Positions 1-56,942 of a stretch of DNA of 64,000 nt are shown piece by piece. The stretch lies in assembly GCA_043826565.1 (NCBI GenBank), contig JBDRPX010000004.1, positions 103,604-167,603 on the forward strand, written 5' to 3'. The notes under the pieces were generated by a model. It worked only from the letters and a program-made list of their open reading frames with translations. It did not search any database and was not told the origin of the DNA. The DNA is from Candidatus Omnitrophota bacterium (GTDB lineage: Bacteria; Omnitrophota; Gorgyraeia; B26-G9). Numbering within the stretch: position 1 is the first letter of the stretch; the number at the start of each line of letters is the position of its first letter. The translations under genes and the position numbers were made by a program.

Positions 1-627
1 TCGCATAGTAATGATCTCTTAAAGTCGAAAGATTATACGGGATTTGCAGTTTTATATTCCGGATATAATATTATCGGTAAGCCCGGAGGGATCTGGGATG
101 AGATATTATGGGAGTATATTAACCTAAAAAGAGAACATCCGGTATGGGCTATTGCCGGGCTGGCTTTTGATTATCAGGGTAATTTAGAGCAAAGGTCCCG
201 GGATTTAAGGAATATGGTATTGCTTTCTGAACAGACTCCGCAAGGAGTATTGGCGGCTTTAGCTAAGGGGAAAAATTACGTTACTCGGGGTGCTCAGTCT
301 GACAATTTTATCCTGAAAGATTTTATGGTTTCCGACTATAAGACTTCCCAATCAAAGCGTATGGGGGAAACTCTTTTTTTAGAAGGTGCTTTACCGCATG
401 TAATAATTAGCGGGGGTTTTACTTCCGGCGGGGCGCAGGAGCTGAATATTTCTTTAGTGAAAAATAAGGAAATAGTGAAAAAATTTGTTGTGCCTGCTCC
501 GTTTACCGTGGAATATGCCGACGGAGATTTTGAAAAAGATGCTTATTACCGTGTGGAAATCAAGGCCAAAGATTTGCATGTGATTACTAACCCGATATTT
601 GTTAAAAAAATGAAAATTGATAATTGA
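1..627 (+). CDS. hypothetical protein, 5'-truncated by the window edge
   Basis: Reading frame 1 is open from nt 1 to the TGA at 625-627. The ORF track only shows the Met-initiated part, 214..627. I recognise no family. Confidence 0.45.
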   Translation, partial: SHSNDLLKSKDYTGFAVLYSGYNIIGKPGGIWDEILWEYINLKREHPVWAIAGLAFDYQGNLEQRSRDLRNMVLLSEQTPQGVLAALAKGKNYVTRGAQSDNFILKDFMVSDYKTSQSKRMGETLFLEGALPHVIISGGFTSGGAQELNISLVKNKEIVKKFVVPAPFTVEYADGDFEKDAYYRVEIKAKDLHVITNPIFVKKMKIDN

Positions 628-678
628 GAATTGAAAGTTGTTTTTTGTTCTTGCCAATATTCAATATTCAACTTTCAG
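608..678 (+). repeat. conserved ~80-bp intergenic inverted-heptamer element, copy A
   Basis: TGAAAATTGATAATTGAGAATTGAAAG...TTGCCAATATTCAATATTCAACTTTCAGGAG lies immediately 5' of the start codon at 688. Confidence 0.7.
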
Positions 679-1400: not shown

Positions 1401-1452
1401 GTTTTGATTTTTGACTTGAATTTTTGCATTTTGATTTTTGAATTTTGATTTT
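1401..1452 (+). repeat. degenerate heptamer array (TTTTGAN-like, ~7 units) upstream of the exeA-like gene
   Basis: The sequence reads GTTTTGA TTTTTGA CTTGAAT TTTTGCA TTTTGAT TTTTGAA TTTTGAT. The related array at 55625-55672 has the same flavour. Confidence 0.55.
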
Positions 1453-1468
1453 AACCTGGAAGGTTACT

Positions 1469-2287: not shown

Positions 2288-2385
2288 ATAGCGTATAGCG
2301 GTTAGCGAGTAGCGTATAGAAAAGAAAAAAAATAGTAACAAGGGTTTCCTAAACGCTAAACGCTTTACGCTGAACGCTATAATGG
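2288..2385 (+). repeat. inverted heptamer-array element of the ACGCT type, copy 1
   Basis: Left arm TAGCGTA TAGCGGT TAGCGAG TAGCGTA. A 32-nt A-rich spacer follows. Right arm AACGCTA AACGCTT TACGCTG AACGCTA TAAT, then GGAGGG and ATG 2395. Confidence 0.7.
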
Positions 2386-2394
2386 AGGGCTACT

Positions 2395-4307: not shown

Positions 4308-4392
4308 TTAGTGGAAAAAGGCAAACTCGTGGTAACGCGAGGGCGCAAAGCCGTGCACCCCGAAAATTCGGGGCAGGCAGGTTGCCCGATGA
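4308..4392 (+). ncRNA. candidate c-di-GMP-I (GEMM) riboswitch aptamer
   Basis: The segment GGCAAAC-[CUCGUG GUAA CGCGAG]-GG-CGCAAAGCC-[GUGCACCCCG AAAAUU CGGGGCAGGCAGG]-UUGCCCGAUG matches the GEMM-I layout, including the hallmark GGCAAAC and CGCAAAGCC strings. The first helix is capped by a GNRA tetraloop. The 3' UUGCC pairs with the 5' GGCAA to form P1. Confidence 0.6.
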
Positions 4393-4406
4393 ATTAATTT
4401 ACGTTA

Positions 4407-4437
4407 CCCAGGCAGGAGTTTGCCTGGGATTTTTTTT
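4407..4437 (+). terminator. intrinsic terminator (riboswitch expression platform)
   Basis: Stem CCCAGGCA / TGCCTGGG with loop GGAGTT, followed by a T8 run. The 3' arm (AGTTTGCC) is also complementary to the aptamer's 5' P1 strand (GGCAAACT), which allows alternative folds. Confidence 0.65.
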
Positions 4438-4536
4438 CGGAATATTAAAAAGTGCCAGGTATGAATGGGGAAAATCAGTAAAAGTGCCAGGCATAATCAG
4501 GGATGAACGTAATATATAAAGGAGTTGGAGCGGAAA

Positions 4537-5694
4537 ATGCCCAGGTTGCCAAGAGTTTACATTGAAAATTCAGTTTATTATGTAACATGTAAGGGATTGC
4601 AAAACCAGGTAATTTTTAAAGACGCGAGGGACTACGAAATGTACTTTGAATTGTTGAAAAAATACAAAGAACAATACGCAGTCAAACTTTATGCTTATAC
4701 TTTAATGCATAATCATTTGCATTTATTAATGGAAGTTGATAAAGAAGCCAGTATTTCCACAATTATGCACGATTTGACCTCTTCTTACACAAAATATTTT
4801 AATGGCCGCTATGACCGCAAAGGCCATTTATTCCGAGAAAGATTTAAAGCCGCTGTTGTAGAAAAAAATCCGCAAATCCTTTTGGACCTTACCGCATATA
4901 TCCACCTCAATCCCAAGCGATTGAACTTAGGCATACAAGGACGTACGTATCCGTATAGCAGTTATGAGCTTTATCTGGACTATTCCCCAAAGTCCGATAG
5001 AGGGCTGGCTATAAAAAATGAAATTGAAAGTATTGTTAATAAGCTGGTTGGCGAAAATTATGTTGAGTTTATGAACCGCATGCAGGATAACGCGGAGTTC
5101 CAGAAAAATTATAAAAAACTTCAGCGTAAAGGAATGATCGGCTCAGGTGAATTTATGAGCAGAGTTAAAGAAGCTATCGAGCAGCAGCGAAGTGAGCCCG
5201 AGGAACCGGAGTTAGAAGAAAAAATATTACATTCTAAGAATGTTCTTATGAACACGGGAGTGGCGGTATTGCTTTTGAGCATAAGCGCGGGGGGCGTTTA
5301 TTTATATTTTAATTACGCAAATAAGGTATTGGATAAACCCCAGATACCTGTTGCGACAGTTGAGCTGCAGTTGAAAGACCTGAATAATACCGAGTGGCAG
5401 GTGGAAATGTTCAATATGGATGGGTCCCTGGCCCGCGCGGATATTTTAAGTTTTATGCAGGGGAAATTCAGTTCGGCATATCTTTCTCAGTTTGAATTCC
5501 CGCATATTAATTATTCTGTTGTTTTTGAAGGAAATAAAATAATTTGGGAAACAATGCAGACATCGGCAACCGGGACCGCGTCATGGCGCGGTGAAGTGGT
5601 AGACGGCGAGATGCTGGGAATGGTCAGCCTGCGGCAGGAAGGGAAAGAACCGCAGGATTTTTCTTTTAAGAGTCTAAAATACAGGAGGAGATAA
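4537..5694 (+). CDS. HUH Y1-transposase-like (IS200/RayT-like) domain protein fused to a TM helix and an uncharacterised C-terminal domain
   Basis: HNHLHLLME (the HuH motif) and AYIHLNPKR (catalytic Tyr + NP) match the IS200-like/REP-associated tyrosine transposase fold. A TM segment VLMNTGVAVLLLSISAGGVYLYF follows, then ~120 unrecognised residues. ATG 4537 lies 12 nt after AAGGAG; the track's 4525 start is a TTG adjacent to the RBS. Confidence 0.6.
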   Translation: MPRLPRVYIENSVYYVTCKGLQNQVIFKDARDYEMYFELLKKYKEQYAVKLYAYTLMHNHLHLLMEVDKEASISTIMHDLTSSYTKYFNGRYDRKGHLFRERFKAAVVEKNPQILLDLTAYIHLNPKRLNLGIQGRTYPYSSYELYLDYSPKSDRGLAIKNEIESIVNKLVGENYVEFMNRMQDNAEFQKNYKKLQRKGMIGSGEFMSRVKEAIEQQRSEPEEPELEEKILHSKNVLMNTGVAVLLLSISAGGVYLYFNYANKVLDKPQIPVATVELQLKDLNNTEWQVEMFNMDGSLARADILSFMQGKFSSAYLSQFEFPHINYSVVFEGNKIIWETMQTSATGTASWRGEVVDGEMLGMVSLRQEGKEPQDFSFKSLKYRRR

Positions 5695-33013: not shown

Positions 33014-33198
33014 GATTTGATGTTAAGCAAGGAGGCGGACCATTGTCAGGATTAAGATGGCAGAGGGCAGATGACAGGAGTCAGTATTCAGAAAGTATAG
33101 TTCAGATATTTGGAAGCAAATGTTTGAAAAATATATTCTGTCTACTGGCTTCTTTTTTTCTGACTTCTGTTTTCTGATTTCTGTCTTCCGTAAAAAAT

Positions 33199-33450
33199 AT
33201 GGAAGCAAAATTACTAAGTGTTACTGTTTTAAGTCCGGAGAAGATTGTCTTTAAGGGGAAAGCTAAACGAGTTATCCTTCCGGGAGAAAAAGGAGTTTTT
33301 GAAATCCTGCCTTTTCACAAGCGGCTATTAAGCCGTTTACTTTCCGGAACGGTTATTATTGATGAACTAATGATTTCTATTTATCGCGGAGTAGTGCAGG
33401 TCGGAGAAAACAACGTGATGGTGATCATGGAGAATGAAAGAAAAGAATGA
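33199..33450 (+). CDS. atpC: F-type ATPase epsilon subunit, short form lacking the C-terminal helical hairpin
   Basis: LSVTVLSPEKIVFKGKAKRVILPGEKGVFEILPFHKRLLSRL is the epsilon N-terminal beta-sandwich. The product is only 83 aa. Confidence 0.55.
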   Translation: MEAKLLSVTVLSPEKIVFKGKAKRVILPGEKGVFEILPFHKRLLSRLLSGTVIIDELMISIYRGVVQVGENNVMVIMENERKE

Positions 33451-33457
33451 AAAACAG

Positions 33458-33545
33458 CGCATAGCGGGCAGCGTTTAGCGGATAGAAAAAGCAAAAAAAT
33501 AATATTAACTATACGCTATCCGCTCTACGCTAAACGCTATAAACG
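33458..33545 (+). repeat. inverted heptamer-array element of the ACGCT type, copy 2
   Basis: Left arm ATAGCGG GCAGCGT TTAGCGG ATAG, then an A-rich spacer. Right arm CTATACG CTATCCG CTCTACG CTAAACG CTATAAA, then CGGAGTG and ATG 33556. Confidence 0.7.
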
Positions 33546-33555
33546 GAGTGAATTT

Positions 33556-33774
33556 ATGGCCCGGCAAATAATATTACTATTTATTTTCATGCTTTGTATT
33601 TTAGGCCCCTCAGGCGTAATGGCTATTGCCGCTTTTGCCAGTATCTCGGCCCTGGGCCGGAATCCTTCGGCCGCGCCGAAAATTTTTACGGCGATGACAA
33701 TTACCTTAGTTTTTGCGGAAGCGCTGGCAATTGTGGCAATGCTGATAGTTTATCAGCTGTTTATGATGGGGTAA
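33556..33774 (+). CDS. atpE: F-type ATPase c subunit
   Basis: A 72-aa two-helix hairpin with a GRNP loop and a conserved carboxylate in helix 2 (VFAEALAIVAML). GGAGTG RBS lies upstream. Confidence 0.7.
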   Translation: MARQIILLFIFMLCILGPSGVMAIAAFASISALGRNPSAAPKIFTAMTITLVFAEALAIVAMLIVYQLFMMG

Positions 33775-33904
33775 ACAGGTCGCAGGTTGCAGGTTTCAAG
33801 ATATACTGTAACAGTCATAGTTTTTGAGACTTGTGACATGAGACTTGAGACATGAAGAGTGACTTTTTGTGTAATTATAGGTATAATAAGGACATAAGTA
33901 TAAA

Positions 33905-33990
33905 AAATGAGAATTGATAATTGAAAATTGTAAAAGCCAGTCAGTGATTTTCCAATATTCAACATTCAATACTCAATTTTCAAACTCGAT
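33905..33990 (+). repeat. conserved ~80-bp intergenic inverted-heptamer element, copy B
   Basis: TGAGAATTGATAATTGAAAATTGTAAAAG...TTTTCCAATATTCAACATTCAATACTCAATTTTCAAACTCG lies immediately 5' of the atpF-like start at 34001. Confidence 0.7.
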
Positions 33991-34000
33991 GAGGTGATAT

Positions 34001-34732
34001 ATGGTAGTAGTAAGTATGATATTATTACAGGTTATTATCTTCGGCGGACTGATATTTCTTTTAAGGCATCTTCTTACCCGTAATGTTACGGATGCGACCT
34101 CACATATGCAGGGAATGATCAAAGGGTACTCGGAAAAAGAGGACCAGATAAAAATTAAACTTGAAGAGGCAGAGAAATATTATGCAGAAAAAATAAAAAA
34201 CGCGGATAAAGAAATTGAAAAATTGAAAGATGAATGCAAGAAGCAGATTGATGAAGAAAAAGTGCAGGTATTGGCCCAGGCGCATAAAGAGAGTGAGACG
34301 GTGATAAACAAGGCCAGGCTTACCTGCGAGGCAATAGAAAATGAATTGGAAAGTAAAATTAATCAGAGAGGAATAGAAAAAGCCGGAGAGCTTATTTGCC
34401 AGGTGCTTTCGCCGGAACTTTGCCAGATAATTCATACGACCTGGGTAGAATCATTAATTGAAAGCGGATTCGCCACAATGGAGTGGCTGAAGGTACCGGA
34501 AGCTGTAAACGTGGCCAAGGTTTCCACGGCATTTGCTTTAACTAAAACACAGAAAGAGACTTTACAGAAAAAACTTGATATCAAATTAGAGAGAGAAATT
34601 AAAATAGAAGAAAAGGTAAGTGAAAAGCTTGTTGCCGGGATGATTATTAATCTGGGCAGCTTGGTTTTAGACGGGAGTTTTGTTTCCAAGATCCGGGAGG
34701 TTGTGCGTGAGTCTACAGCAGATGAAAGTTAA
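34001..34732 (+). CDS. F-type ATPase b-like subunit with a delta(OSCP)-like C-terminal motif (possible b/delta fusion)
   Basis: N-terminal TM helix, then a long Lys/Glu-rich coiled coil. The C-terminus VAGMIINLGSLVLDGSFVSKIREVV resembles the delta-subunit C-terminal motif. GAGGTG RBS lies upstream. Confidence 0.45.
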   Translation: MVVVSMILLQVIIFGGLIFLLRHLLTRNVTDATSHMQGMIKGYSEKEDQIKIKLEEAEKYYAEKIKNADKEIEKLKDECKKQIDEEKVQVLAQAHKESETVINKARLTCEAIENELESKINQRGIEKAGELICQVLSPELCQIIHTTWVESLIESGFATMEWLKVPEAVNVAKVSTAFALTKTQKETLQKKLDIKLEREIKIEEKVSEKLVAGMIINLGSLVLDGSFVSKIREVVRESTADES

Positions 34733-36188
34733 GCTAGCTCAAGAAATAAAATTTAATGTCCGGGAAATCGGCAAGGTTAAATCTGTTCGTGAATTTATTG
34801 TCCGGGCAATAGATATGCCCTCATGTATAAACGGACAGATTGTTGAGTTTGATAACGGATTGCCCGGAATGGTGATGGGGTTTACGGAAAATGAGGTTCA
34901 GATTTTAGTGCTGGGGCCTAAAGCTCAGATCCGGGCCGGTGATCGGGTGTATAGTAAAGGCCGGTTTCTTGCTCTTCCGGTAGGAGATGCTTTTGTCGGA
35001 AGAATCGTAAATGCTTTGTGTGAACCGGTCGATAATAAAGGACCGATAAATGCGCGGGAAAATTATCCGGTATTTAGAGAGGCCCCCGGAGTTATGGAAA
35101 GGCTTCCGGTAGAAAGGACATTAGAATCCGGAACACGTCTTATTGATACAATGATTCCTTTGGCCAAGGGACAGCGTCAGCTTTTAATCGGAGACCGGCA
35201 GACCGGCAAGACAACAATTGCGATAGACGCGATATTAAATCAAAAGGACAAAGATGTAATTTGTATCTATTGCTCGATCGGAAAAACATATTCCAGCCTG
35301 GAGAAATTAGTTGCTTTATTGCGTGAAAAAGGCGCTATGGATTACTCAATTGTTGTCAGCGGGATAGCCTCTGCTTCGGTGGGAGAACAGTATTTAGCGC
35401 CGTATACGGCTTGTATGCTTGGTGAGTATTTTATGTTTAACGGCAAAGATGTATTAGTTGTTTTTGATGACCTGACCAGGCATGCCTGGACTTACCGGCA
35501 GATATCCCTGCTTATGGATAGAGCTCCGGGAAGAGAAGCGTATCCCGGAGATATCTTTTATACGCATTCCCAGCTTATGGAAAGAGCCGGACAGATGAAT
35601 GAAGCTTTAAGCGGCGGTTCAATGTCTTTTTTTCCGATAGTGGAAACTTTACAAGGTGATGTTACCGGTTATATACCGACTAATCTCATATCTATGACTG
35701 ACGGGCAGATTTATTTAAGCACCGCTTTGGTAAACAAAGGATTTATGCCGGCGGTTGATGTCGGTCTTTCGGTTTCGCGTATTGGCAGTAAATCGCAATG
35801 GCCGGCTTTGAAGGAACCCAGCCGCAGCCTGCGGCTTGATTTTTTGCAATATCAAAAATTGCAGGAGATGACGCAGTTAAGAACCAGTGATCTTTCTGAA
35901 GATGCGGCGAGAAAATTAAAAAGAGGCGCGGCCATAACACAATTGCTGATCCAGGATAAGAATGATCCGGTGACCATGGAAAGAGAAGTTTGTGAAATGT
36001 ATGCGTTTGTCCGGGGAGTTCTGGATGACTTTACTCCTTTGGAAATAGATAAGTTTAAAGAAGAGTTTTATAAAAAAATTGTAGAAGTAGCTCCGGATCT
36101 GCCGAAACGTTTGCGCGAAACACAGGTGCTCATGGATGAGAGTATGATGAATTTGGAAGAGGGGATTGGTATTTACTTCCCCAGCTAG
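34722..36188 (+). CDS. atpA: F-type ATPase alpha subunit
   Basis: GDRQTGKTT P-loop and alpha-specific regions (LLIGDRQTGKTTIAIDAILNQK, AYPGDIFYTHSQLMERA). It overlaps the preceding gene by 11 nt. Confidence 0.85.
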   Translation: MKVKLAQEIKFNVREIGKVKSVREFIVRAIDMPSCINGQIVEFDNGLPGMVMGFTENEVQILVLGPKAQIRAGDRVYSKGRFLALPVGDAFVGRIVNALCEPVDNKGPINARENYPVFREAPGVMERLPVERTLESGTRLIDTMIPLAKGQRQLLIGDRQTGKTTIAIDAILNQKDKDVICIYCSIGKTYSSLEKLVALLREKGAMDYSIVVSGIASASVGEQYLAPYTACMLGEYFMFNGKDVLVVFDDLTRHAWTYRQISLLMDRAPGREAYPGDIFYTHSQLMERAGQMNEALSGGSMSFFPIVETLQGDVTGYIPTNLISMTDGQIYLSTALVNKGFMPAVDVGLSVSRIGSKSQWPALKEPSRSLRLDFLQYQKLQEMTQLRTSDLSEDAARKLKRGAAITQLLIQDKNDPVTMEREVCEMYAFVRGVLDDFTPLEIDKFKEEFYKKIVEVAPDLPKRLRETQVLMDESMMNLEEGIGIYFPS

Positions 36189-36393
36189 TATTATGAGTAA
36201 AAAGATTTTTTAAATTACAATATACAATTTTCAAATTAAAAATAAGTAGAATCTTTAGGATGTTTTATTACACTTTGTGGAATTATTTAAGTGATTTTGA
36301 TTTGTATATTGGAATTTGGTTGTAATTTGAGATTTGTAATTTTTGTTTATTCTTCTTACTTGGGATGTACTGTTATTTAAGGGGCTAATTAGA

Positions 36394-37236
36394 ATGGGTG
36401 CGATAGCAAAGCTCAAAGATGATATGAATTTTTATCGGTCCTTAGGAGGACTTATCGAGCTTTTGAAAATGATCGCGATCACCCATTATCATAATTTGGA
36501 AAAAAAACTGGAAACTTATGAGGAATATCTTAAGGTGATCGCCGGGTTTTTCTCCTGGCTGGATATGCAAAAGACAAGCCATCCCTTTATGCGCAGCTCG
36601 GATAAACCTACCGGGATTGTGGCGATCACTTCTGACGGCGGGCTTTTAGGCGGTTATAATGCGCTGATTATGAACGAAGCTATGCGTCAGAGACAGGAAG
36701 AAGACGGTAAACTGATTATTGTCGGTAAACGCGGTAAGCTTTATGTTGAAAAACAGAAAATAGTGTATGCTGTTTTTCCCGGGATAACTAATGCTGGCCG
36801 TTTAGAGCAGGCATTAAAATTAAGGGATTATCTGGTAGAGCAGGCATTAAAAGGGAATTTGGGGAAAATAAAAATTGTTTTTTCTAACCCCATTTCTTTT
36901 ACTTTACAGCGTGTGGAAACGATACAGCTTTTACCTTTTGTGCAGAAAATTCGGAGACCGCCTAAATTAGAGGTCAAAGATGTTATTTTTGAGTCGGACT
37001 TTGCCGGATTGGCAGAATATTTGATACATTTATGGATGGGGCAGAGAGTTTTTGAAATCCTTGGCTTAAGTCAGTTGTCCGAGCAGGCCGCGCGGTTTAT
37101 GCATTTGGAGGTTTGTACCCAAAGGATAAAGGAAATGGATCAAAAGCTTAAATTTAAATATTTTCGGGCGCGGCATGAGATTGTTGACCAGAATATGCGG
37201 GAGCTTTTTTCCGCGAGGATTATGAATGCGCAATAA
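36394..37236 (+). CDS. atpG: F-type ATPase gamma subunit (divergent)
   Basis: Its position between alpha and beta and its size fit gamma; the N-terminal helix is IAKLKDDMNFYRSLGGLIELLKMIAITHY. The longer ORF from 36343 adds a hydrophobic prefix with no RBS. Confidence 0.55.
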   Translation: MGAIAKLKDDMNFYRSLGGLIELLKMIAITHYHNLEKKLETYEEYLKVIAGFFSWLDMQKTSHPFMRSSDKPTGIVAITSDGGLLGGYNALIMNEAMRQRQEEDGKLIIVGKRGKLYVEKQKIVYAVFPGITNAGRLEQALKLRDYLVEQALKGNLGKIKIVFSNPISFTLQRVETIQLLPFVQKIRRPPKLEVKDVIFESDFAGLAEYLIHLWMGQRVFEILGLSQLSEQAARFMHLEVCTQRIKEMDQKLKFKYFRARHEIVDQNMRELFSARIMNAQ

Positions 37237-38641
37237 AATAAAAAATAAAGATGATAAAAAAAACACGGTTGGAAAAGTGATCTCCGTGCAGGGGCCGGTT
37301 GTGGATATAAAGTTTCCCCAACAGGAAGATGTTCCGAATGTTTTTGATCTTATTATCACCTATACTGTTGACGGACAAAAGGTGAGTTTGGAAGTTGCCG
37401 AACATTTGATTGGAAATGTCGCCCGGTGTATTTCCCTTAATTCGACTTTGAACATTCAAAGACATGCCGACGCGTTTGTGCCCGGCGGCGGGATTGAGGT
37501 TCCGGTCGGCGATGAGATGTATTCCCGGCTTATTAATGTTGTCGGCGAGCCGATAGATAAAAAGGGGCCGATTAATTCCACGGAAACAAGGCCGATTCGC
37601 ACAGCGTCCGCAGGAACAAAGATCAGTAAAAACAGTGACGAGCGAGGAACAGAACTTTTAGAAACCGGGATTAAGATTATTGACCTTTTATTTCCTTTGG
37701 TAAAGGGAAGTAAAAACGGGATTCTCGGCGGTGCGGCTATGGGGAAAAGTGTTCTTACTCTGGAAATAATCCAGCATATTGTTAAACGTCATCAGGGTTC
37801 TTGTGTGTTTACCGGAGCCGGAGAGCGTATTCGTGAAGGTAATGAATTATATTTCGAATTGGAGAAGCATAATATTCTGCCGAAAATGAAAATGGTTTTT
37901 GGACAGATGAATGAACCTCCCGGAGCTCGTTATGCAGTAGCGATGACCGGGATAACCTTAGCCGAAAGTATTCAGCGTCAAAACAAAGATGTACTTTTAT
38001 TCATTGATAATGTATTTCGTTTTCTTCAGGCCGGGCAGGAAATATCTACGCTGCTGGGCCGGGTTCCGTCGGAAACCGGATATCAGCCGACATTGTTTTC
38101 CGAAGCTGCGGATTTTCATGAACGTATACGTTCACAACAGGAATACGGCGGGTCGATTACCTCGATTGAAGCCGTATATGTTCCGGCAGATGACTTAACT
38201 GATCCGGCGGTAGTTGCGATATTTAGTTTTCTGGATTCGCTTATTGTTCTTTCTCGTGAACGGGTACAGATGGGGCTGTATCCGGCAATAGATCCGCTTC
38301 TATCAGCGTGTAATAACCTGGATACCGATATTGTCGGGAAATATCATTATGGAATTGCTCAGGATGTATTGCGTGTTTTTCAGCGTTATGAAGAACTTAG
38401 AAAGATAGTATTAGTTGTCGGTATTGATGAGCTTTCTTCTGCGGACCGTTTGACCTATGAACGAGCGCTTAAACTTCAGAATTTTCTTACCCAGCCGTTT
38501 TCTGTCGCGGAATCTTATACCGGAAGAAGAGGGGTGTATGTTACGGTTGACCAGACACTGAGCGGGTGCAAAAGAATCATGTCCGGAGATTTTGATAAAC
38601 AGAATGAAGGGGATTTTTATATGATGGGAGCATTGGCCTGA
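37226..38641 (+). CDS. atpD: F-type ATPase beta subunit
   Basis: Beta-subunit architecture with a divergent P-loop GGAAMGKSV (canonical GGAGVGKTV). The DELSEED region is replaced by DELSSAD. It overlaps atpG by 11 nt. Confidence 0.8.
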   Translation: MRNKIKNKDDKKNTVGKVISVQGPVVDIKFPQQEDVPNVFDLIITYTVDGQKVSLEVAEHLIGNVARCISLNSTLNIQRHADAFVPGGGIEVPVGDEMYSRLINVVGEPIDKKGPINSTETRPIRTASAGTKISKNSDERGTELLETGIKIIDLLFPLVKGSKNGILGGAAMGKSVLTLEIIQHIVKRHQGSCVFTGAGERIREGNELYFELEKHNILPKMKMVFGQMNEPPGARYAVAMTGITLAESIQRQNKDVLLFIDNVFRFLQAGQEISTLLGRVPSETGYQPTLFSEAADFHERIRSQQEYGGSITSIEAVYVPADDLTDPAVVAIFSFLDSLIVLSRERVQMGLYPAIDPLLSACNNLDTDIVGKYHYGIAQDVLRVFQRYEELRKIVLVVGIDELSSADRLTYERALKLQNFLTQPFSVAESYTGRRGVYVTVDQTLSGCKRIMSGDFDKQNEGDFYMMGALA

Positions 38642-38749: not shown

Positions 38750-40933
38750 ATGGGTAAAAATACTGATGCAATGGTTGTTCAATTGTTAATTGAGCATGAA
38801 ATTCTGGATAAGAAAGAGATTCAGGCTTGTTTTAAGGAAGCTGAAAAAAAGAATAGTTCACCGATACATATTATCGCCGCCCGCAGTAAAACCCCGGAAA
38901 AAAAGCTTTTAGAAATTATTGCTAAAAAACTTCAAATAGAATGTATAAATTTGAAAACCATAGAAATAGATGCCAATGCGCTTAAAAAGGTTCCGGTCAA
39001 AGTTTCCTCCTATTATAAATTTGTTCCGATTCGTTTAGAAAATCGTGTATTGACCATTGCCGTAGCTTACCCGCTGGAGGTAAGGATGCTGGATGAAATC
39101 AGAACGCATCTGGGATTTAATATTGAAATGGTATTGGTTCGGGAAGAAGACGTTCTGGAAATGCTCAAAAATTACTATGGGTTAGGCGCGGAAACAGTTG
39201 AAAAGATTATTGCCCAAAAGACGTATGATTCTCCGACGGAGAAAGTAAAGGAAGATGTTGTCGATGACCTGGAAGCTCTTAGCGGTGCCGCGTCGGTAAT
39301 TCAGCTGGTAAATCAGATTATTTTAGAGTCCTATAAAAAAAGAGCGACAGATATTCACATTGAACCGTACCGGAATAAAGTGCGGTTAAGATACCGTATT
39401 GACGGCGTGCTTTATGAATCTAAGGTTTCTCCGGAAGTTAAGAATTTTCTTACTCCCATACTTTCCCGAATTAAATTGATGTCTAATTTAAATATTGTCG
39501 AGCGGCGTTTGCCGCAGGACGGACGGGCAGTAGTAAAAGTCCAGGATCAGACTCTTGACTTGAGAGTATCGTTTATCCCGACACCTTATGGGGAAAGCGT
39601 GGTCATTAGAATATTACCGGCGGCAATGCTTTTTGGATTGGAGAGGCTGGGGCTTACGGAGTCTGAACATGAGTGTTTAAACGAATTAATTCAAAAGCCG
39701 AATGGTATTGTTTTTCTGACCGGGCCGACCGGAAGCGGAAAGACGACTACATTATATGCTTGTCTTTCATGTATTAATACCGATAAACGTAAAATAATCA
39801 CCATTGAAGATCCCATAGAGTATGAACTTGAAGGCATAACTCAAATACAGATAGCTCAGGCGGTCGGGCTTGATTTTGCGCGGGGATTGCGCAGTATGCT
39901 GCGCCATGATCCCGATGTCATGATGGTTGGGGAGGTTCGGGATCTAGAAACTGCGGAAATTGCGATCAGGGTTGCGCTTACCGGACATTTAGTATTTTCC
40001 ACATTACATACTAATGATGCGGCCAGCGGTATTACCAGACTTGTGGATATCGGTGTTGAGCCGTATCTTGTAGCTTCCAGTGTCGAGGCTTTTATCGCGC
40101 AGCGTTTAGTAAGAATGATTTGTCCTGCTTGCCGGGAGGAAGATTTAGAGATTGCCGATAGTATAAGGAGACAGATCTCCCAGGATTTGGGATATGATAA
40201 TTCTCAAGAAATTAAAGTTTTTCGCGGTAAGGGTTGTCAGGAATGTAATTTTAGCGGGTATTACGGCCGAACCGCTATTTATGAAATACTAATGCTTAAT
40301 GAGGCGCTAAGGGAATTGGTTTTGCATAAATCTTCCAGTGATGAGATCAAGAGGATGGCGATGGCTAATGGAATGAGGACATTGCGCCAGAGCGGCTGGT
40401 TAAAGGTGCTTGAAGGAGTAACCACTCCGGAGGAAATATTGCGGGTTACTCAAGCAGATAAATCTGTTTCTAAAAAAATATCAGAAAAGAAAACTTCCGC
40501 CAGTGAGATTATGGAAATTGCTAAAGAGACATTACAAAAACATATTGCTCCCAAAAAAAAGGAATTTAATCCCGCGGATAGACGTGTGTATGAGCGCCTG
40601 GATAACAGAGTGTATGTGCGCTATACAATATTTAAAGCCGAAAAGAAAAAAAATGTCGAAGGTGAGTATGAAGCAGTACAAGTGGCAGTAACAAGTAATA
40701 TCAGTGCTGGAGGATTACTATTTAACGCGGTGGAAAATCTAGCGATAGGGCTGATAATTGACCTTACGCTGGAATTGCCTGATGAGGGTCCGGTGCAATG
40801 TCTGTCCCGGGTGGTTCGGGTTGAGGAAAGAGTGCCTAATAAAGATTATGAGATCGCGATATGTTTTCTTGATCTGCCCAGCTCGGAACGGGCACGTCTT
40901 AATAGGTTTGTTTTACGCGACATAAAAAAATGA
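38750..40933 (+). CDS. gspE: GspE/PilB-family secretion ATPase with a C-terminal PilZ domain
   Basis: N-terminal GSPII_E N-domain; Walker A LTGPTGSGKTTT; tetracysteine CPACREED...GKGCQECNFSGY. The C-terminal ~120 aa carry the PilZ motifs RRVYER and NISAGG. Confidence 0.8.
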   Translation: MGKNTDAMVVQLLIEHEILDKKEIQACFKEAEKKNSSPIHIIAARSKTPEKKLLEIIAKKLQIECINLKTIEIDANALKKVPVKVSSYYKFVPIRLENRVLTIAVAYPLEVRMLDEIRTHLGFNIEMVLVREEDVLEMLKNYYGLGAETVEKIIAQKTYDSPTEKVKEDVVDDLEALSGAASVIQLVNQIILESYKKRATDIHIEPYRNKVRLRYRIDGVLYESKVSPEVKNFLTPILSRIKLMSNLNIVERRLPQDGRAVVKVQDQTLDLRVSFIPTPYGESVVIRILPAAMLFGLERLGLTESEHECLNELIQKPNGIVFLTGPTGSGKTTTLYACLSCINTDKRKIITIEDPIEYELEGITQIQIAQAVGLDFARGLRSMLRHDPDVMMVGEVRDLETAEIAIRVALTGHLVFSTLHTNDAASGITRLVDIGVEPYLVASSVEAFIAQRLVRMICPACREEDLEIADSIRRQISQDLGYDNSQEIKVFRGKGCQECNFSGYYGRTAIYEILMLNEALRELVLHKSSSDEIKRMAMANGMRTLRQSGWLKVLEGVTTPEEILRVTQADKSVSKKISEKKTSASEIMEIAKETLQKHIAPKKKEFNPADRRVYERLDNRVYVRYTIFKAEKKKNVEGEYEAVQVAVTSNISAGGLLFNAVENLAIGLIIDLTLELPDEGPVQCLSRVVRVEERVPNKDYEIAICFLDLPSSERARLNRFVLRDIKK

Positions 40934-42180: not shown

Positions 42181-42244
42181 CGAAGTTACAGGTTACAAGT
42201 GACAGGTGACAAGTTGTAATAAATAAATCAAGAAAAAATCAATA

Positions 42245-43099
42245 ATGCGAATTAAATTGTTCGAATATATTTCTTTTGGAGTGATACTATTTTTATTCAC
42301 ATGTTCTTTGGCAGGAGCGGAAGAATGGGCGGAGGTAAAAGGGGATCATTTTATTGTCTATTTCCAAGGTCCGAATAAAAATTTTGCCAGCCAGGCTGCC
42401 CGAAAAGCTGAGGAATACTACCTGTCTATAGCGCAAGACCTGGGATATGTACGGTATTCCGGTTTTTGGAAATGGGAGAACAGAGTAAGAATTTTTATTT
42501 ATCCGGACCGCGATAAATATTTGGAATCTACCGGCCGGCCGCAGTGGTCCCGCGGTATGGCTGATTATACGAAAAAGCAGATAGTAAGTTATATGTGGAG
42601 CGAGAATTTTTTGGAAGTTCTTTTAGCTCACGAGATCGGTCATTTGATTTTTCGTGACTTTGTCGGTTTTAAAGGAGAAGTTCCTCTTTGGCTTGATGAA
42701 GGCGTCGCGCAATGGGAAGAAAAACAATTTCGGATTCCCCGAAAAATGGCCATGAAAAATATGCTTGAAGAAAACAAAATGTTTTCTTTTTTGGATATGA
42801 TGAAACTTGAAATCAAAAATATCGATGAAGAAGATCCGATATTTATTACCTCATCATTTAACGGGAAGAATGAAGTTAAAATTGTCGAGGGTAAAACACT
42901 TATTGAGATGTACTATTTGCAGTCATTCTCATTAGTGGGATTTCTGATGGAAGAATATCGCGGAGAAAAATTCATCGCTTTTTGCCGGCAGTTAAGAGAC
43001 GGAAAATCTGTGCAGGAGGCTTTGGGGCATACTTACCCTACCGATTTGAGGACATTTGAAGATTTAGAAGAAAAGTGGAGAAAATACATACTAAAATAA
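42245..43099 (+). CDS. secreted peptidase-MA-like (HExxH...EG..Q.E) domain protein
   Basis: Signal peptide ISFGVILFLFTCSLAGA. AHEIGH followed by WLDEGVAQWEE resembles the zinc-binding signature of the Peptidase_MA_2/DUF1570 family. Confidence 0.5.
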   Translation: MRIKLFEYISFGVILFLFTCSLAGAEEWAEVKGDHFIVYFQGPNKNFASQAARKAEEYYLSIAQDLGYVRYSGFWKWENRVRIFIYPDRDKYLESTGRPQWSRGMADYTKKQIVSYMWSENFLEVLLAHEIGHLIFRDFVGFKGEVPLWLDEGVAQWEEKQFRIPRKMAMKNMLEENKMFSFLDMMKLEIKNIDEEDPIFITSSFNGKNEVKIVEGKTLIEMYYLQSFSLVGFLMEEYRGEKFIAFCRQLRDGKSVQEALGHTYPTDLRTFEDLEEKWRKYILK

Positions 43100-43165
43100 A
43101 TCAAAAATCAAAAGTCAAAAGGCAAAATTACAATGCAAAATTCAAAAATAAAAAGATAAATGATA
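43093..43165 (+). repeat. degenerate heptamer array (AANTCAA-like, ~10 units) upstream of gspG
   Basis: The sequence reads AAATCAA AAATCAA AAGTCAA AAGGCAA AATTACA ATGCAAA ATTCAAA AATAAAA AGATAAA TGATAAA. Confidence 0.55.
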
Positions 43166-43184
43166 AAAAGACTGGAGGAAAGTC

Positions 43185-43589: not shown

Positions 43590-44061
43590 AAACAGAAGTC
43601 AGAGGTCAGAAATCAGAGGTCAGAAGAAAAAAAATCTGTCATCTGTTATCTGTCATCCGACGTCTGGTTTTACCTTAGTCGAGGTGCTGGTTGCGGTGGT
43701 GGTTTTGTCCGTAGGATTAGTCATTATATATGAATCATTCTTAATGTCGCTCGATGTCATAAATTTGTTCTTCAATCGGTTAAATGCGCAGTTTTTCATA
43801 AGTGAAAAAATTGCTCAGGTTCAGCATGGATTCGACCAGCCGGCGGGAACTTTTTTCTCTCCAAATCAAAACGGAATAGTTACTTTAAATAACCGTCTGT
43901 TTAATTGGCAAATAGATATGAATTTGCTTGATGTCCGAGGGGAACTTTATAAGCTTGATACTGTTGTTTCCTGGAAAGAGGGATCTAAAGATAGTGTGAT
44001 CCGCCGGTCTACGCTGGTTAAAAAATATTTTTCTAATTCCTGCCCGGAGAAAAAAAGGTAA
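43567..44061 (+). CDS. minor pseudopilin (GspH/I-like); start uncertain
   Basis: Class III signal G|FTLVEVLVAVVVLSVGLVII. The only in-frame ATGs are at 43567/43570, overlapping the gspG 3' end. That start implies a 34-aa basic leader encoded through a heptamer repeat. The track's start at 43465 would overlap gspG by 125 nt. Confidence 0.45.
   Translation: MMLIIGSKNRSQRSEIRGQKKKNLSSVICHPTSGFTLVEVLVAVVVLSVGLVIIYESFLMSLDVINLFFNRLNAQFFISEKIAQVQHGFDQPAGTFFSPNQNGIVTLNNRLFNWQIDMNLLDVRGELYKLDTVVSWKEGSKDSVIRRSTLVKKYFSNSCPEKKR
43591..43672 (+). repeat. inverted heptamer arrays (CAGARNT x5, an A-run, then TCTGTYA x3-5) at the gspG / minor-pseudopilin junction
   Basis: The sequence reads CAGAAGT CAGAGGT CAGAAAT CAGAGGT CAGAAGA AAAAAAA TCTGTCA TCTGTTA TCTGTCA TCCGACG TCTGGTT. 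Confidence 0.6.
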
Positions 44062-44690: not shown

Positions 44691-44770
44691 AATGATGATT
44701 ATTGAGAGTTGATAATTGAAAATTGTAAAAATATTTGATGTTTTTCCAATAGACAACACTCAACGGTCAA
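44688..44770 (+). repeat. conserved ~80-bp intergenic inverted-heptamer element, copy C
   Basis: TGAGAGTTGATAATTGAAAATTGTAAAAAT...TTTTTCCAATAGACAACACTCAACGGTCAATTTTC lies upstream of the gspK-like start at 44810. Confidence 0.65.
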
Positions 44771-44809
44771 TTTTCTTATTAACTATTTTAGGAAAAATTA
44801 TTTAAGCAT

Positions 44810-52380: not shown

Positions 52381-52557
52381 AAAATAAGGCTCAGAGCCTT
52401 ATTTTGAAATCACAATAAACAAATAACAGATTCCAAACAAATGACAATAACCAAAATTCAAATGACAAAAAATAGATTATAATATGCTTGGTGATTGATT
52501 TTTAAATATTGGAATTTGGAAATTGTAATTTGGAATTTAAAAAAATGGGGGTAGAAT

Positions 52558-53625
52558 ATGGCAGATATAGGAGAACTGTTACAGCTTTGTATTAATCAGA
52601 ATGCTTCTGATTTACACTTGACCGTAGGAAAGCCGCCGACGATTCGGGTTGACGGGTCGTTAATGAGCATGAATTATGAGCCGCTGGCGCATGAAGATAC
52701 GGAAATCCTTATGAAATCTATTACCAGCAGTGAAAATCAACGCAGGGTTCAGGAGGTCGGAGGAGTTGATTTTGGTTTTGCTTTTGAAAAAGTAGCGCGT
52801 TTTCGTGTTTCAGTGTATAAACAAAAAGGCCATTATGGGATGACCTTGCGGTTAATCCCGACTCATTTGCTTAGTTTTCAGGAAATTGGTTTGCCGACGG
52901 TAATCCGTGATTTGCTTTATCGTCCGAGAGGACTTGTTCTGGTAACCGGGCCGACCGGAAGCGGTAAAACAACGACATTAGCAACGATGACTGATTTTGT
53001 TAATACCGAAAGAGACTGTCATATAATTACGATTGAAGATCCGATAGAGTATTATCATACTCATAAGAAGGGGATTGTTACGCAAAGAGAAATCGGGGTT
53101 GATGTCCCGACATTTAGTGAAGGGTTAATAAGAGGATTGCGTCAGGATCCGGATCTGATACTTGTTGGTGAAATGAGAGATTTGGCGACGATTGAAGCGG
53201 CAATACTTGCCGCGGAAACCGGGCATTTGGTTTTGGCAACCTTGCATACAACAAGTGCCGCGGCTACCGTAGATCGTATTATTGATGTTTTTCCTCCTTC
53301 ACAGCAGGAACAGATCAGGACACAGCTTTCTACTTCTATTTTAGCGGTAATATCACAGCAGCTGATCGTCAAAGCTACCGGACGGGGCAGGGTTGGTGCT
53401 TTTGAGATCATGATAAGTACGTCTTCAATCCAGAATCTTATTCGTGAAAAGAAGACTTATCGCATTCCCTCTGATTTACAAACCGGAGCAAAATATGGTA
53501 TGAAACCGTTTGATACCTCGTTATTTGAGTTATATTCACAGGGGTTAATCCGGGCCGAAGATGCGGTGGCTAAAGCTTTTGATAAAGAGAGTATGCAGAA
53601 AAAAGTACAGGGAGAGTATAAATAA
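52558..53625 (+). CDS. pilT: twitching-motility retraction ATPase PilT
   Basis: 355 aa with ASDLHL, VTGPTGSGKTTT and SIQNLIRE, and no N-terminal extension. Confidence 0.85.
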   Translation: MADIGELLQLCINQNASDLHLTVGKPPTIRVDGSLMSMNYEPLAHEDTEILMKSITSSENQRRVQEVGGVDFGFAFEKVARFRVSVYKQKGHYGMTLRLIPTHLLSFQEIGLPTVIRDLLYRPRGLVLVTGPTGSGKTTTLATMTDFVNTERDCHIITIEDPIEYYHTHKKGIVTQREIGVDVPTFSEGLIRGLRQDPDLILVGEMRDLATIEAAILAAETGHLVLATLHTTSAAATVDRIIDVFPPSQQEQIRTQLSTSILAVISQQLIVKATGRGRVGAFEIMISTSSIQNLIREKKTYRIPSDLQTGAKYGMKPFDTSLFELYSQGLIRAEDAVAKAFDKESMQKKVQGEYK

Positions 53626-55332: not shown

Positions 55333-55697
55333 AAATAAGTCAAAACTTAAAAGAGTAATACAAAACAAAAAAGTATTTTTTAATAATTTAGAAATATTGT
55401 ACTTTAATAAAGTGATATTTGTATATTTTGTTAACTATATATTTTCTCATAACGGCACAATTTTCCCGTACCGGGCGCGAAAAATCAGCTAAAAATCACC
55501 TCCCGGACTGACGGGCTCGGCAATTTTCTTAACGCTAATTTTTTGCTAAAATTGTGAGTTGTTCAAAACCATATAGATTAACAACTCGGTTAACACATCT
55601 TTGTTATATTACAGTAATATTTTTTAATTTTGATTTGTCATTTTGACTTTTGCTTTTTGAATTTTGAATTAGTTAATAATAGGATATTTATAAAATT

Positions 55698-56942
55698 ATG
55701 TCATTATTCGATTATACGGCAATTAATAAAGAAGGCAAAGAAGTTACCGGAGAGCTCGAAGCTGTTTCTGTTTCCGAGGTTGTGGGGGTTTTACGTTCAA
55801 AACATCTTTTTTCCGTTGAAGTTGTTCCCGCGGGTACAGCAAATAAAAAGAAGAGGTTGTTGTCCGGATTTATCAGTAGGTTAAAATTGTTTTCTAAATC
55901 GCGCCGGATAAAACCGCAGGATCTTGTTATTTTCACCCGGCAGCTTGCCGTATTGATTGATGCCGGATTACCTTTAGTGCAGGCATTGTATACTTTGCAG
56001 CGGCAGGCACGTTTTCAGGAGATGAGTGAACTTATTGCTGAGTTGATTGACGCTATTGAATCAGGAAGAACTTTAAGTGACGCATTATCGATTTATCCGG
56101 AATCCTTTTCAAAAGTGTATATAAATATTGTAAAAGCCGGAGAGACCGGAGGTGCTTTGGATGTTGTATTGAAGCGTTTAGCTGATTATCTGGAAAGGAA
56201 TCTGCGGTTGCAGCAGCGTATTCATTCCGCTCTGATCTATCCGGCACTGGTATTGGTTATCGCCGTAATAATTTTAACGATTATTATTACTTTTGTTATT
56301 CCCAGCTTTATGGCTTTATTCGAAGATACGGGAATCCCATTGCCTTTATTAACGCAGGCAATCTTAAATATTACAACGTTTTTGCGGATGCGCTGGTATT
56401 TGTTTGCCGGGTTTTTGGTAATAGTTGTTTTTGGATATAATATATTATTGCAGAATCTTAAGTTTAAGTATTTAAAAGATAAAGTTAAACTTAATTTACC
56501 TGTTTTCGGAGCGCTGACAAGTAAAATAATTGCGGCCCGTTTTTCACGGACTCTGGCAACACTGATGAGCGGAGGTGTGCATATCTTACGTGCTTTAGAG
56601 CTAACCAAAGAAGTTAGCGGAAATTTAGTTATGGAAAAGGAAATTGATACGGTCTATGACAGTGTCCGGGAAGGCGGTTTTATTGCCAAGGTTCTGGAGA
56701 ACAGCGGAGTTTTTCCTCAGCTTATGGTTGATATGATTTCTGTGGGAGAAGAAAGCGGATCTCTGGATAAAATGCTTTCTAAAGTTGCGGATACTTTTGA
56801 GGAGGAGGTTGAAATTACGGCCAGTAGTTTAACTTCATTGCTTGAACCGGCGCTTATTGTGATCATGGGTGGTATTGTCGGCCTTATAGTTCTGGCCATG
56901 TTCTTACCTCTTATAAGTTTAATAAAATCGTTAACCATATGA
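55698..56942 (+). CDS. pilC: PilC/GspF-family platform protein
   Basis: Two T2SSF repeats (AGLPLVQAL..., LEPALIVIMGGIVGLIVLAMF). Confidence 0.8.
   Translation: MSLFDYTAINKEGKEVTGELEAVSVSEVVGVLRSKHLFSVEVVPAGTANKKKRLLSGFISRLKLFSKSRRIKPQDLVIFTRQLAVLIDAGLPLVQALYTLQRQARFQEMSELIAELIDAIESGRTLSDALSIYPESFSKVYINIVKAGETGGALDVVLKRLADYLERNLRLQQRIHSALIYPALVLVIAVIILTIIITFVIPSFMALFEDTGIPLPLLTQAILNITTFLRMRWYLFAGFLVIVVFGYNILLQNLKFKYLKDKVKLNLPVFGALTSKIIAARFSRTLATLMSGGVHILRALELTKEVSGNLVMEKEIDTVYDSVREGGFIAKVLENSGVFPQLMVDMISVGEESGSLDKMLSKVADTFEEEVEITASSLTSLLEPALIVIMGGIVGLIVLAMFLPLISLIKSLTI

Follow-up and report, generated by a model that had tools for sequence, protein, structure and literature searches.

The intergenic spacers of an uncultivated Omnitrophota bacterium carry a pervasive class of heptad-periodic repeats, that is, arrays of 7-nt units that mostly occur as inverted pairs, and two sites with a TAGCG core, at 2289-2383 (site 1) and 33455-33543 (site 2), are paralogous copies of one family within this class. 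The window referred to throughout is the whole stretch of DNA that was analysed, 64,000 nt of Candidatus Omnitrophota contig JBDRPX010000004.1, in which every gene lies on the + strand. Elements of this class are rapidly acquired and exchanged for others, and the class is common to several genomes and phyla. The reading that we favour, with confidence that is evenly poised, is that of a dispersed palindromic repeat of heptad units, akin to repetitive extragenic palindromic (REP) sequences, that is copied between sites, turns over within its arms and is transcribed as an intercistronic hairpin. The parts of the two TAGCG sites are as follows.

2282-2284, + strand: site 1, TAA that ends the preceding AAA_22 ATPase gene.
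2289..2319, + strand: site 1, left arm TAGCGTA TAGCGGT TAGCGAG TAGCGTA TAG, starting 4 nt past the AAA_22 TAA.
2320..2348, + strand: site 1, A-rich loop of 29 nt whose initial ~20 nt are similar to the site 2 loop.
2349..2383, + strand: site 1, right arm CTAAACG CTAAACG CTTTACG CTGAACG CTATAAT.
2384-2389 and 2395, + strand: site 1, Shine-Dalgarno sequence GGAGGG and ATG of the PIG-L deacetylase gene, respectively.
33448-33450, + strand: site 2, TGA that ends the preceding ATP synthase epsilon gene.
33455..33485, + strand: site 2, left arm CAGCGCA TAGCGGG CAGCGTT TAGCGGA TAG, starting 4 nt past the epsilon TGA.
33486..33508, + strand: site 2, A-rich loop.
33509..33543, + strand: site 2, right arm CTATACG CTATCCG CTCTACG CTAAACG CTATAAA.
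33545-33548 and 33556, + strand: site 2, GGAG and ATG of the ATP synthase c-subunit gene, respectively.

The architecture described in a first-pass annotation of this DNA, namely direct heptamers, an A-rich loop and inverted heptamers followed by a ribosome-binding site and an ATG, can be read directly from the sequence at both sites, and Tandem Repeats Finder reports period 7 at both arms of each. The two sites are 71% identical overall, the start of the loop (~20 nt) included, and all 8 matches to AGCG-N3-AGCG-N3-AGCG in the window fall within them, where shuffled sequence leads one to expect 0.05. The annotated hairpin ending shortly before the ribosome-binding site is borne out by RNA folding: sites 1 and 2 reach -32.5 and -32.7 kcal/mol, against shuffle means of -20.8 and -20.2 (z of -3.7 and -4.4), and 0 of 200 shuffles attain the native energy. 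The stems are themselves periodic, helices of 4-6 bp at the AGCG/CGCU cores alternating, with a 7-nt period, with internal loops of 1-3 nt where the units vary, and single arms fold weakly, at -1.4 to -7.5 kcal/mol with scattered pairs.

Sites 1 and 2 are not alone. Reading the window spacer by spacer yields ~14 period-7 elements with differing cores, sites 1 and 2 included, all of them intergenic, which together take up ~1200 of 3176 spacer nt (~38%). In a scan of the window for self-similarity, lag 7 accounts for 118 scan windows, against 0-4 for each of the other lags from 4 to 12. The annotation's count of two copies thus holds for the AGCG core within the window, but not for the architecture, which recurs ~12 more times with other cores: AATTG/CAAT in three elements, CAG/CTG in two, then CAGGTTG/GAGAC, ACAAT/ATTGT and CCAAA/TTTGG, besides the single arrays TTTTGAN, AAATCAA and AAGTNAC. 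These elements usually begin 0-5 nt past a stop codon and run nearly up to the following start. Shuffled controls fold significantly worse than most of the inverted elements, whose z goes down to -6.2.

611..678, + strand: AATTG/CAAT core, left units TGAAAAT TGATAAT TGAGAAT TGAAAGT, right units CAATATT CAATATT CAACTTT.
1402..1458, + strand: single array of ~7 TTTTGAN units that lacks an inverted counterpart, 5' of the AAA_22 gene.
33054..33194, + strand: CAGNNNN / NNNNCTG hairpin in the spacer between a giant open reading frame (ORF) and the epsilon gene, -55 kcal/mol, z -6.2.
33776..33856, + strand: CAGGTTG / TTGAGAC hairpin directly 3' of the c-subunit gene, G-U-rich, -30.5 kcal/mol sense and -12.9 kcal/mol antisense.
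33903..33987, + strand: second AATTG/CAAT hairpin, upstream of a b/delta-like ATP synthase gene.
36208..36345, + strand: ACAAT / ATTGT-type hairpin in the spacer between the ATP synthase alpha and gamma genes.
42183..42221, + strand: AAGTTAC/AGGTGAC array with 14-nt alternation, directly 3' of the type II secretion system (T2SS) F gene.
43098..43170, + strand: A-rich single array (AAATCAA-type, ~10 units) upstream of the T2SS G pseudopilin gene.
43593..43668, + strand: CAGAAGT / ATCTGTC hairpin directly 3' of the T2SS G gene, with a core also found in locus L051.
44696..44775, + strand: third AATTG/CAA hairpin, with a 22-nt stretch identical to the 33903 copy.
52433..52545, + strand: CCAAA / TTGGAAT arrays in inverted orientation, within the spacer that precedes the gene at 52558.
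55621..55678, + strand: TTTTGAN single array upstream of the gene at 55698.

In the element at 611..678 the TGA stop codon of the upstream gene (625-627) falls within the third unit. The other spacers of the window hold ordinary GC-rich hairpins, promoter-like sequence or a riboswitch. A promoter-like site, GTGACT-17-TATAAT (10/12 matches), lies at 33859-33887, exactly between the two heptad hairpins 3' of the c-subunit gene.

The bias towards period 7 extends to other Omnitrophota. Related loci (numbered here with an L) were found via the T2SS ATPase, whose matches were confined to metagenome-assembled genomes of Candidatus Omnitrophota and of the PVC (Planctomycetes, Verrucomicrobia and Chlamydiae) group, with a best identity of 64%; the PIG-L protein of the window, for its part, has an identical counterpart in an Omnitrophota metagenome-assembled genome at NCBI. 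In 1.31 Mb of DNA from these loci and the window, period 7 accounts for 128 arrays, against 2-23 for periods 5, 6 and 8-11. Although gene interiors make up 82% of this DNA, 84% of the 128 arrays lie outside them, and neighbouring arrays in the Omnitrophota loci are inverted in 29 cases versus direct in 10 (~3:1). The distribution is patchy, many Omnitrophota loci being without any array. The TAGCG core recurs in L001, L009, L010, L035, L061 and L081, a TAGGGAN core in L035, L082 and L086, and a CAGAAGT/ACTTCTG core is common to the window and L051, a contig of 63% GC. The possibility that further copies would be lacking, raised in the first-pass annotation, is therefore set aside, since many were found. 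Longer forms were also seen: a near-perfect array of ~16 CAAGACA/CAAGACG heptamers directly 3' of a T2SS G pseudopilin gene (L016 8809-8926) and, on an Omnitrophota contig of 56% GC, nested multi-block heptad hairpins of several hundred nt (L080 6339-6714 and 10931-12422), in which outer CGTGAAN/TCACGAN arrays surround ACCAGNN/NNCTGGT arrays and further inner blocks.

Nor is the AGCG family confined to this phylum. An AGCG hairpin pattern of three plus three units was found at at least 120 loci of metagenome contigs, with GC contents of 0.36-0.76 among the matches listed, and non-AGCG cores co-occur on contigs bearing AGCG hairpins. On one high-GC contig a gene is flanked on both sides by AGCG hairpins, and the nearest relatives of its protein are from Xanthobacteraceae. 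In cultured Haliscomenobacter hydrossis DSM 1100, an AGCG heptad hairpin lies between umuD and umuC (Y-family polymerase) on plasmid pHALHY02 (L207 1500-1625; NC_015512.1 ~64370-64482), a plasmid with 5 matching places. A Sulfurovum mangrovi replicon carries a perfect direct (CTAAACG)x12 array downstream of rplS (L208 1505-1585), with 18 matching places in the record.

Orthologous gene junctions reveal how quickly these elements change. The order WbqC, AAA_22, PIG-L, GT4, Y1-transposase-like gene, small ORF and giant ORF is conserved in relatives. At the AAA_22/PIG-L junction both the window and L081 (83% protein identity) have a 4+4 TAGCG hairpin, in which the variable positions differ and the loops are unrelated or flipped; the L081 loop aligns better to the reverse complement of the window loop, which suggests that the loop may have flipped, an alignment in which base composition is a confounder. 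The same junction in L082 and L083 (83%) holds four TAGGG-type units and no second arm, and since TAGGG is one substitution away from TAGCG in every unit, a concerted change is suggested. In L085 and L086 (75-76%) there is no spacer, the stop and start codons overlapping or abutting. At the WbqC/AAA_22 junction, three different array families are found among four genomes. These comparisons therefore identify the elements as lineage-specific gains with fast turnover, and lineage-specific, fast-changing heptamers have likewise been described for other units (PMC4679880, PMC4692102). The final unit singled out by the annotation, CTATAAT or CTATAAA, is present at both window sites, but a TATAAT-like unit is not kept in the orthologous element of L081. 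A promoter role was dropped on this ground and because no promoter-like site overlapping site 1 or 2 was called.

The internal make-up of the arms was analysed in 128 AGCG elements, a low-GC subset of which is of the window's type. Arms most often contain 4 perfect-core units, and in 113 of the 128 elements the two arms are equal in unit number or one unit apart. While the (T)AGCG core is fixed, unit positions 5-7 vary. Permuting the order of units in one arm left fold energy unaffected (52 of 108 more stable, p = 0.44), and no covariation between facing units was detected in the AGCG elements, the variable positions pairing no better with the facing unit than with others. Complementarity of the arms therefore follows from the shared unit type, with pairing possible in any register, and the classical argument for a conserved RNA structure cannot be made where covariation is absent. 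The order of the units is nonetheless far from random. In the low-GC set identical units make up 9.7% of adjacent versus 26.7% of non-adjacent pairs, an ABAB alternation with which the 14-nt periods reported by Tandem Repeats Finder agree; unit bigrams are 3-5x and trigrams ~20x over expectation, and the 17-mer GCGTAGAGCGTATAGCG occurs in 10 of 55 low-GC elements. An 'A' arm (TAT-TAG-TAT) typically stands opposite a 'B' arm (TTT-GAT-TTT), in 12 AB versus 3 AA/BB elements, and this pairing results in conserved A-A, U-C and G-A mismatches. Several pairs of elements are 85-95% identical with no detectable similarity in their flanks. Arm haplotypes common to unrelated flanks point to copying of arms or whole elements, or else to a sequence-specific constraint, and their recurrence across contigs suggests that there may be a master sequence. 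Within the 64 kb of this genome, AGCG is present in 2 copies (71% identical) and AATTG in 3. Independent slippage does not account for the shared haplotypes.

Heptameric intergenic repeats have reportedly been noticed since 1990, the STRR heptamers of cyanobacteria being said to go back to Mazel in that year. The Omnitrophota elements belong to this already noted class of bacterial intergenic heptameric repeats, with whose class-level features they agree except for the sequence of the unit. Heptamers in Xanthomonas (GGGAATC) and Nostoc (GGGGAYT) are intergenic, most often come as ~4 units and are heterogeneous at fixed positions (Rehm et al. 2015, PMC4692102); some of their loci are inverted pairs able to form stem-loops, and they vary between close relatives at one junction (PMC4692102). 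The window elements resemble them in the 7-nt unit, the intergenic location, the ~4 units, the variation at fixed positions and the fast change at junctions, and the TAGGGAN arrays of L082, L086 and L035 resemble the GGGANTN type of these repeats. The window elements differ from them in their cores (AGCG, AATTG, CAG), their Omnitrophota host, the dominance of inverted-pair hairpins and the many families per genome, and the AGCG family lacks the potential to form G-quadruplexes. TAACTGA repeats of Beggiatoaceae, cyanobacteria and Bacteroidetes form sets of 2-6 units within a few nt of start codons (MacGregor 2015, PMC4679880); their units contain stop codons, distant phyla share the heptamer, and close relatives have shorter, repeat-free spacers (PMC4679880). 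All four features are shared by the Omnitrophota arrays, which have many cores, are mostly inverted pairs and show no fixed orientation, whereas TAACTGA repeats are almost always direct (1 inverted set per 170), in fixed forward orientation and built on one dominant heptamer (PMC4679880).

The published units CCCCAGT, TTGGTCA, CAACAGT, TAACTGA, GGGAATC and GGGGATT are not found in tandem in the window, the sole published heptamers that are being TTTTGAA/TTTTGAT, which have been reported from the ctx promoter and from upstream of recF in Nostoc. The view of the first-pass annotation that this is not a described element is right insofar as no literature on such repeats was found for Omnitrophota, but it overlooks the heptameric intergenic repeats published in other phyla (PMC4692102, PMC4679880). 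The only gathering-level Rfam match in the window is a c-di-GMP riboswitch, with none at the heptad sites, and permissive scans of sites 1 and 2 return at best eukaryotic miRNA and snoRNA models at 14-21 bits, far under their thresholds. An origin as integron attC sites was discarded, since GTTRRRY is absent from the right ends and the flanking genes belong to core operons (ATP synthase, T2SS) rather than cassettes, although the scan for an integrase did not extend to every ORF, and CRISPR and telomere-like origins were discarded on anatomy.

How might such elements arise and what might they do? The arms could evolve by unit-wise duplication and homogenisation, which would generate the 7- and 14-nt periodicity and the concerted core changes, and whole arms or elements would be copied between sites, so that specific arm haplotypes recur in unrelated flanks. 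Given their position within operons, the elements would be expected to be transcribed and to fold in the mRNA. The predicted product would be a long imperfect hairpin of ~28 nt per arm, spanning the spacer from the stop codon of one gene to a few nt short of the Shine-Dalgarno sequence of the following gene, and its effect would most likely be generic and structural rather than sequence-specific. It might determine the stability of segments of the polycistronic mRNA, by blocking 3'-to-5' decay or marking a processing boundary, and it might insulate the ribosome-binding site that follows by giving it a defined context. Often the upstream gene takes its stop codon from the TAG of unit 1, 2 or 3 (offsets -2, -9 and -16), and a stop codon supplied by the repeat allows the element to overlap gene ends safely; the last unit usually lies 0-25 nt from the next ATG. 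An explanation of period 7 itself by stop codons in all three frames was rejected, as it holds for TAG and TGA units only and other cores have no stop codons.

By analogy to known systems, a role in transcript stability or processing, one of those proposed in the first-pass annotation, appears to be the most plausible function, and only slightly less likely is a repeat that is mostly selfish and simply tolerated. REP sequences, bacterial interspersed mosaic elements (BIME) and REPINs are short imperfect palindromes that are dispersed intergenically, often within operons, and act as mRNA stabilisers (PMC8266576, PMC3116915). The heptad elements resemble them as dispersed intergenic imperfect palindromes with conserved stem mismatches and no target-site duplications, and in the presence of a gene in the window that resembles a REP-associated tyrosine transposase (RAYT); they differ in lacking GTAG, in arms made of tandem heptads rather than 20-50-nt palindromes, and in the absence of a REPtron arrangement. 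The second analogy is with stem-loops in selective RNA processing and stabilisation operons, which set operon stoichiometry according to transcript data (PMC8219983). Like these, the heptad hairpins lie directly 3' of genes within operons and do not need sequence conservation; unlike them, they have a repeat architecture and show no enrichment after highly expressed genes.

Several results weigh against the favoured reading of a copied, transcribed intercistronic hairpin. Copying should be judged with the fixed core in mind, which alone gives an expected identity of ~80% between any two members, so that this evidence is partly weaker than the raw percentages imply, and no target-site duplication or flank motif was found in the flanks of 54 low-GC elements. 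The absence of arrays from many Omnitrophota loci makes an essential role unlikely. No preference for folding on the sense strand emerged from 25 oriented AGCG elements (14 vs 11, p = 0.95), and the Omnitrophota pairs gave mixed signs; the A arm is 5' with respect to transcription in 13 elements and not in 7, which is not significant. Without strand preference and with unfixed orientation, there is no strand-specific signature of selection on RNA. A systematic count of junctions places arrays at 7-16% everywhere, with no enrichment after the highly expressed T2SS G or c-subunit genes. Finally, no arrays lie within 1.5 kb of the RAYT-like gene in four of five loci (the window, L085, L086 and L016), and no RAYT-like homologue was found in 0.67 Mb of loci with AGCG hairpins.

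On the sense strand four hairpins of the window gain much in stability, and some depend on G-U pairs, but neither the Omnitrophota pairs nor the 25 oriented AGCG elements are biased in this way, and we do not use G-U pairing or strand as evidence either way on RNA-level selection. Loop polarity (A-rich versus T-rich) is likewise random with respect to transcription. In the window, L007, L016 and L018 a hairpin does follow the gene for the major pseudopilin, and in the window and L071 one follows the alpha-subunit gene; special placement after pseudopilin or c-subunit genes was abandoned because the systematic count shows no preferred junction.

It is possible, if unlikely, that the arrays are purely local simple-sequence repeats, produced by a 7-nt slippage bias tolerated in spacers, with inverted pairs made by fold-back copying, neutral throughout and with no copying between sites. 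Such a scenario would fit the over-representation of period 7 alone, and a passage of PMC4692102 that cites Mrazek 2007 mentions both a period-7 excess in many bacteria and a polymerase-slippage hypothesis. Perfect arrays such as (CTAAACG)x12 of Sulfurovum and the long array at L016 8809-8926 also agree with slippage, as do the differing families at the same junction in relatives, the concerted core change in L082, arm pairing that is independent of register and the lack of target-site duplication. However, variation is limited to the same 2-3 unit positions in more than 100 independent elements, unit variants and their orders recur in unrelated flanks and genomes, cores recur across phyla, and inverted arrangements are favoured ~3:1 over direct ones. 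Moreover, identity is rarer between adjacent than between non-adjacent units, whereas recent slippage would lead one to expect the reverse.

A more far-reaching scenario, and rather an improbable one, is that heptad hairpins form a distinct cross-phylum class of elements with a machinery of its own, whose subunits would each take up one heptad, so that nucleic acid is read 7 nt at a time, and which would recognise the conserved, asymmetric A and B arms. If true, this machinery would either copy elements to stop-start junctions, by single-strand-hairpin transposition or templated insertion, or use them for genome-wide post-transcriptional control. It would explain why the same cores and haplotypes occur from Omnitrophota to Alphaproteobacteria and Bacteroidota, why four units are the mode and why period 7 alone is favoured.

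Alternatively, and a shade less probably still, the arrays could, in line with the protein-binding role also proposed by the first-pass annotation, be sites for an oligomeric nucleic-acid-binding protein with one heptad per subunit, either omega-like on DNA or, on RNA, of the HutP type or a cold-shock/S1-type oligonucleotide/oligosaccharide-binding (OB) fold, arm complementarity being a by-product. The omega ribbon-helix-helix repressor of pSM19035 binds 7-bp heptads, direct or inverted, in arrays of 3-10 units at promoter sites, and HutP binds UAG-N4 repeats in leader regions of RNA. Sites 1 and 2 share with omega operators the heptad register and the presence of inverted orientation, and their left arms, UAG-N4 x4, have the spacing of the HutP motif. 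A conserved core of 4-5 nt with 2-3 free positions per unit, ~four units per arm, the lack of covariation between facing units and the lack of orientation or strand bias are all in line with a binding array. CspB binds heptamers with one protein per unit (PMC4679880), and a binding partner has been postulated for Nostoc heptamers (bioRxiv 10.1101/2022.06.06.494920). Yet as many specificities would be needed as there are unrelated cores, at least 8 within 64 kb of this small genome, and the sites lie between cistrons of housekeeping operons and not at promoters, in contrast to omega and HutP sites, which are promoter or leader sites of single specificity with a cognate protein. The second arm reads CUA and not UAG, so that there is no second HutP-type site, and no terminator was called with the first. 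No candidate protein was identified, a cognate-protein test and a search for HutP homologues not having been made.

That REP- or REPIN-type elements are mobilised by the RAYT-like Y1 transposase of the window is very improbable. The gene (4525-5694) encodes a 389-aa protein with an N-terminal Y1 transposase domain and ~250 C-terminal residues to which no domain was assigned, and its best NCBIfam match is indeed the REP-associated tyrosine transposase model, at 63.8 bits (E = 1.6e-17), which is under the model cut-off of 80. It is single-copy and syntenic in L085 and L086, as is typical of RAYTs, with 55-63% identity in relatives, and the heptad elements are, like REPs, intergenic imperfect palindromes without target-site duplications. 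However, their arms are not palindromes themselves, and no conserved GTAG 5' of the palindrome was found in the flanks of the 54 low-GC elements, GTAG occurring only incidentally in some units. The distance of the arrays from the gene and the lack of a homologue among the AGCG-hairpin loci count against this enzyme too, and many cores would have to be served by one enzyme. Least probable of all is an intrinsic terminator or attenuator between cistrons, a role proposed by the first-pass annotation that is unsupported despite stable hairpins directly after stop codons, as no T-run follows any stem, the terminator scan called none of the heptad hairpins but did call that of the riboswitch at 4407-4428, loops of 23-30 nt and stems of ~28 nt with periodic mismatches are atypical, and the elements sit within operons whose downstream genes are needed (ATP synthase, T2SS).

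Other features of the window provide the setting of these elements. A c-di-GMP-I-GGC (cyclic di-GMP) riboswitch at 4311-4436 (60.1 bits; gathering threshold 59), followed by the T-run terminator-like hairpin at 4407-4428, lies upstream of the RAYT-like gene and the giant ORF, and L085 and L086 show the same riboswitch leader. The direct repeat AAGTGCCAGG occurs twice, at 4450-4459 and 4482-4491 (~32 nt apart), in the stretch that separates the riboswitch terminator from the RAYT-like gene, and L085 and L086 have a similar GTGCCAGG pair. The giant ORF (6194-33013) runs uninterrupted for 8939 aa, and L085 and L086 likewise have giant ORFs at this position, that of L086 being called at 7685 aa and running off the locus. 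The F-type ATPase cluster at 33199-38641 comprises, in this order, epsilon, c, a b/delta-like fusion, alpha, gamma and beta genes, with heptad hairpins in four of its spacers; an a-subunit gene was not found among the ORFs scanned. The ATPase of the T2SS or type IV pilus (T2SSE, 38750-40933) bears an N-terminal MshEN and a C-terminal PilZ domain, known c-di-GMP-binding modules that add a second link to c-di-GMP in the window beside the riboswitch.

Set against the heptamers already known, what is new here is the density of the repeats, the prevalence of the hairpin form, arms that pair in any register yet keep conserved A and B haplotypes, and the reach of the AGCG family across phyla. The heptad phenomenon is very dense in the genome of this uncultivated Omnitrophota bacterium, with about half of the operon spacers made up of these elements. 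Low-GC members of the AGCG family retain specific, non-complementary arm haplotypes amid unrelated flanks, for which simple slippage can hardly account and which suggest copying or a constraint on the sequence. Gene callers and predictors of operons and terminators will misread heptad spacers, in which the repeat often supplies the stop codon of the upstream gene. As a cultured carrier, Haliscomenobacter hydrossis may offer an experimental system for these elements.

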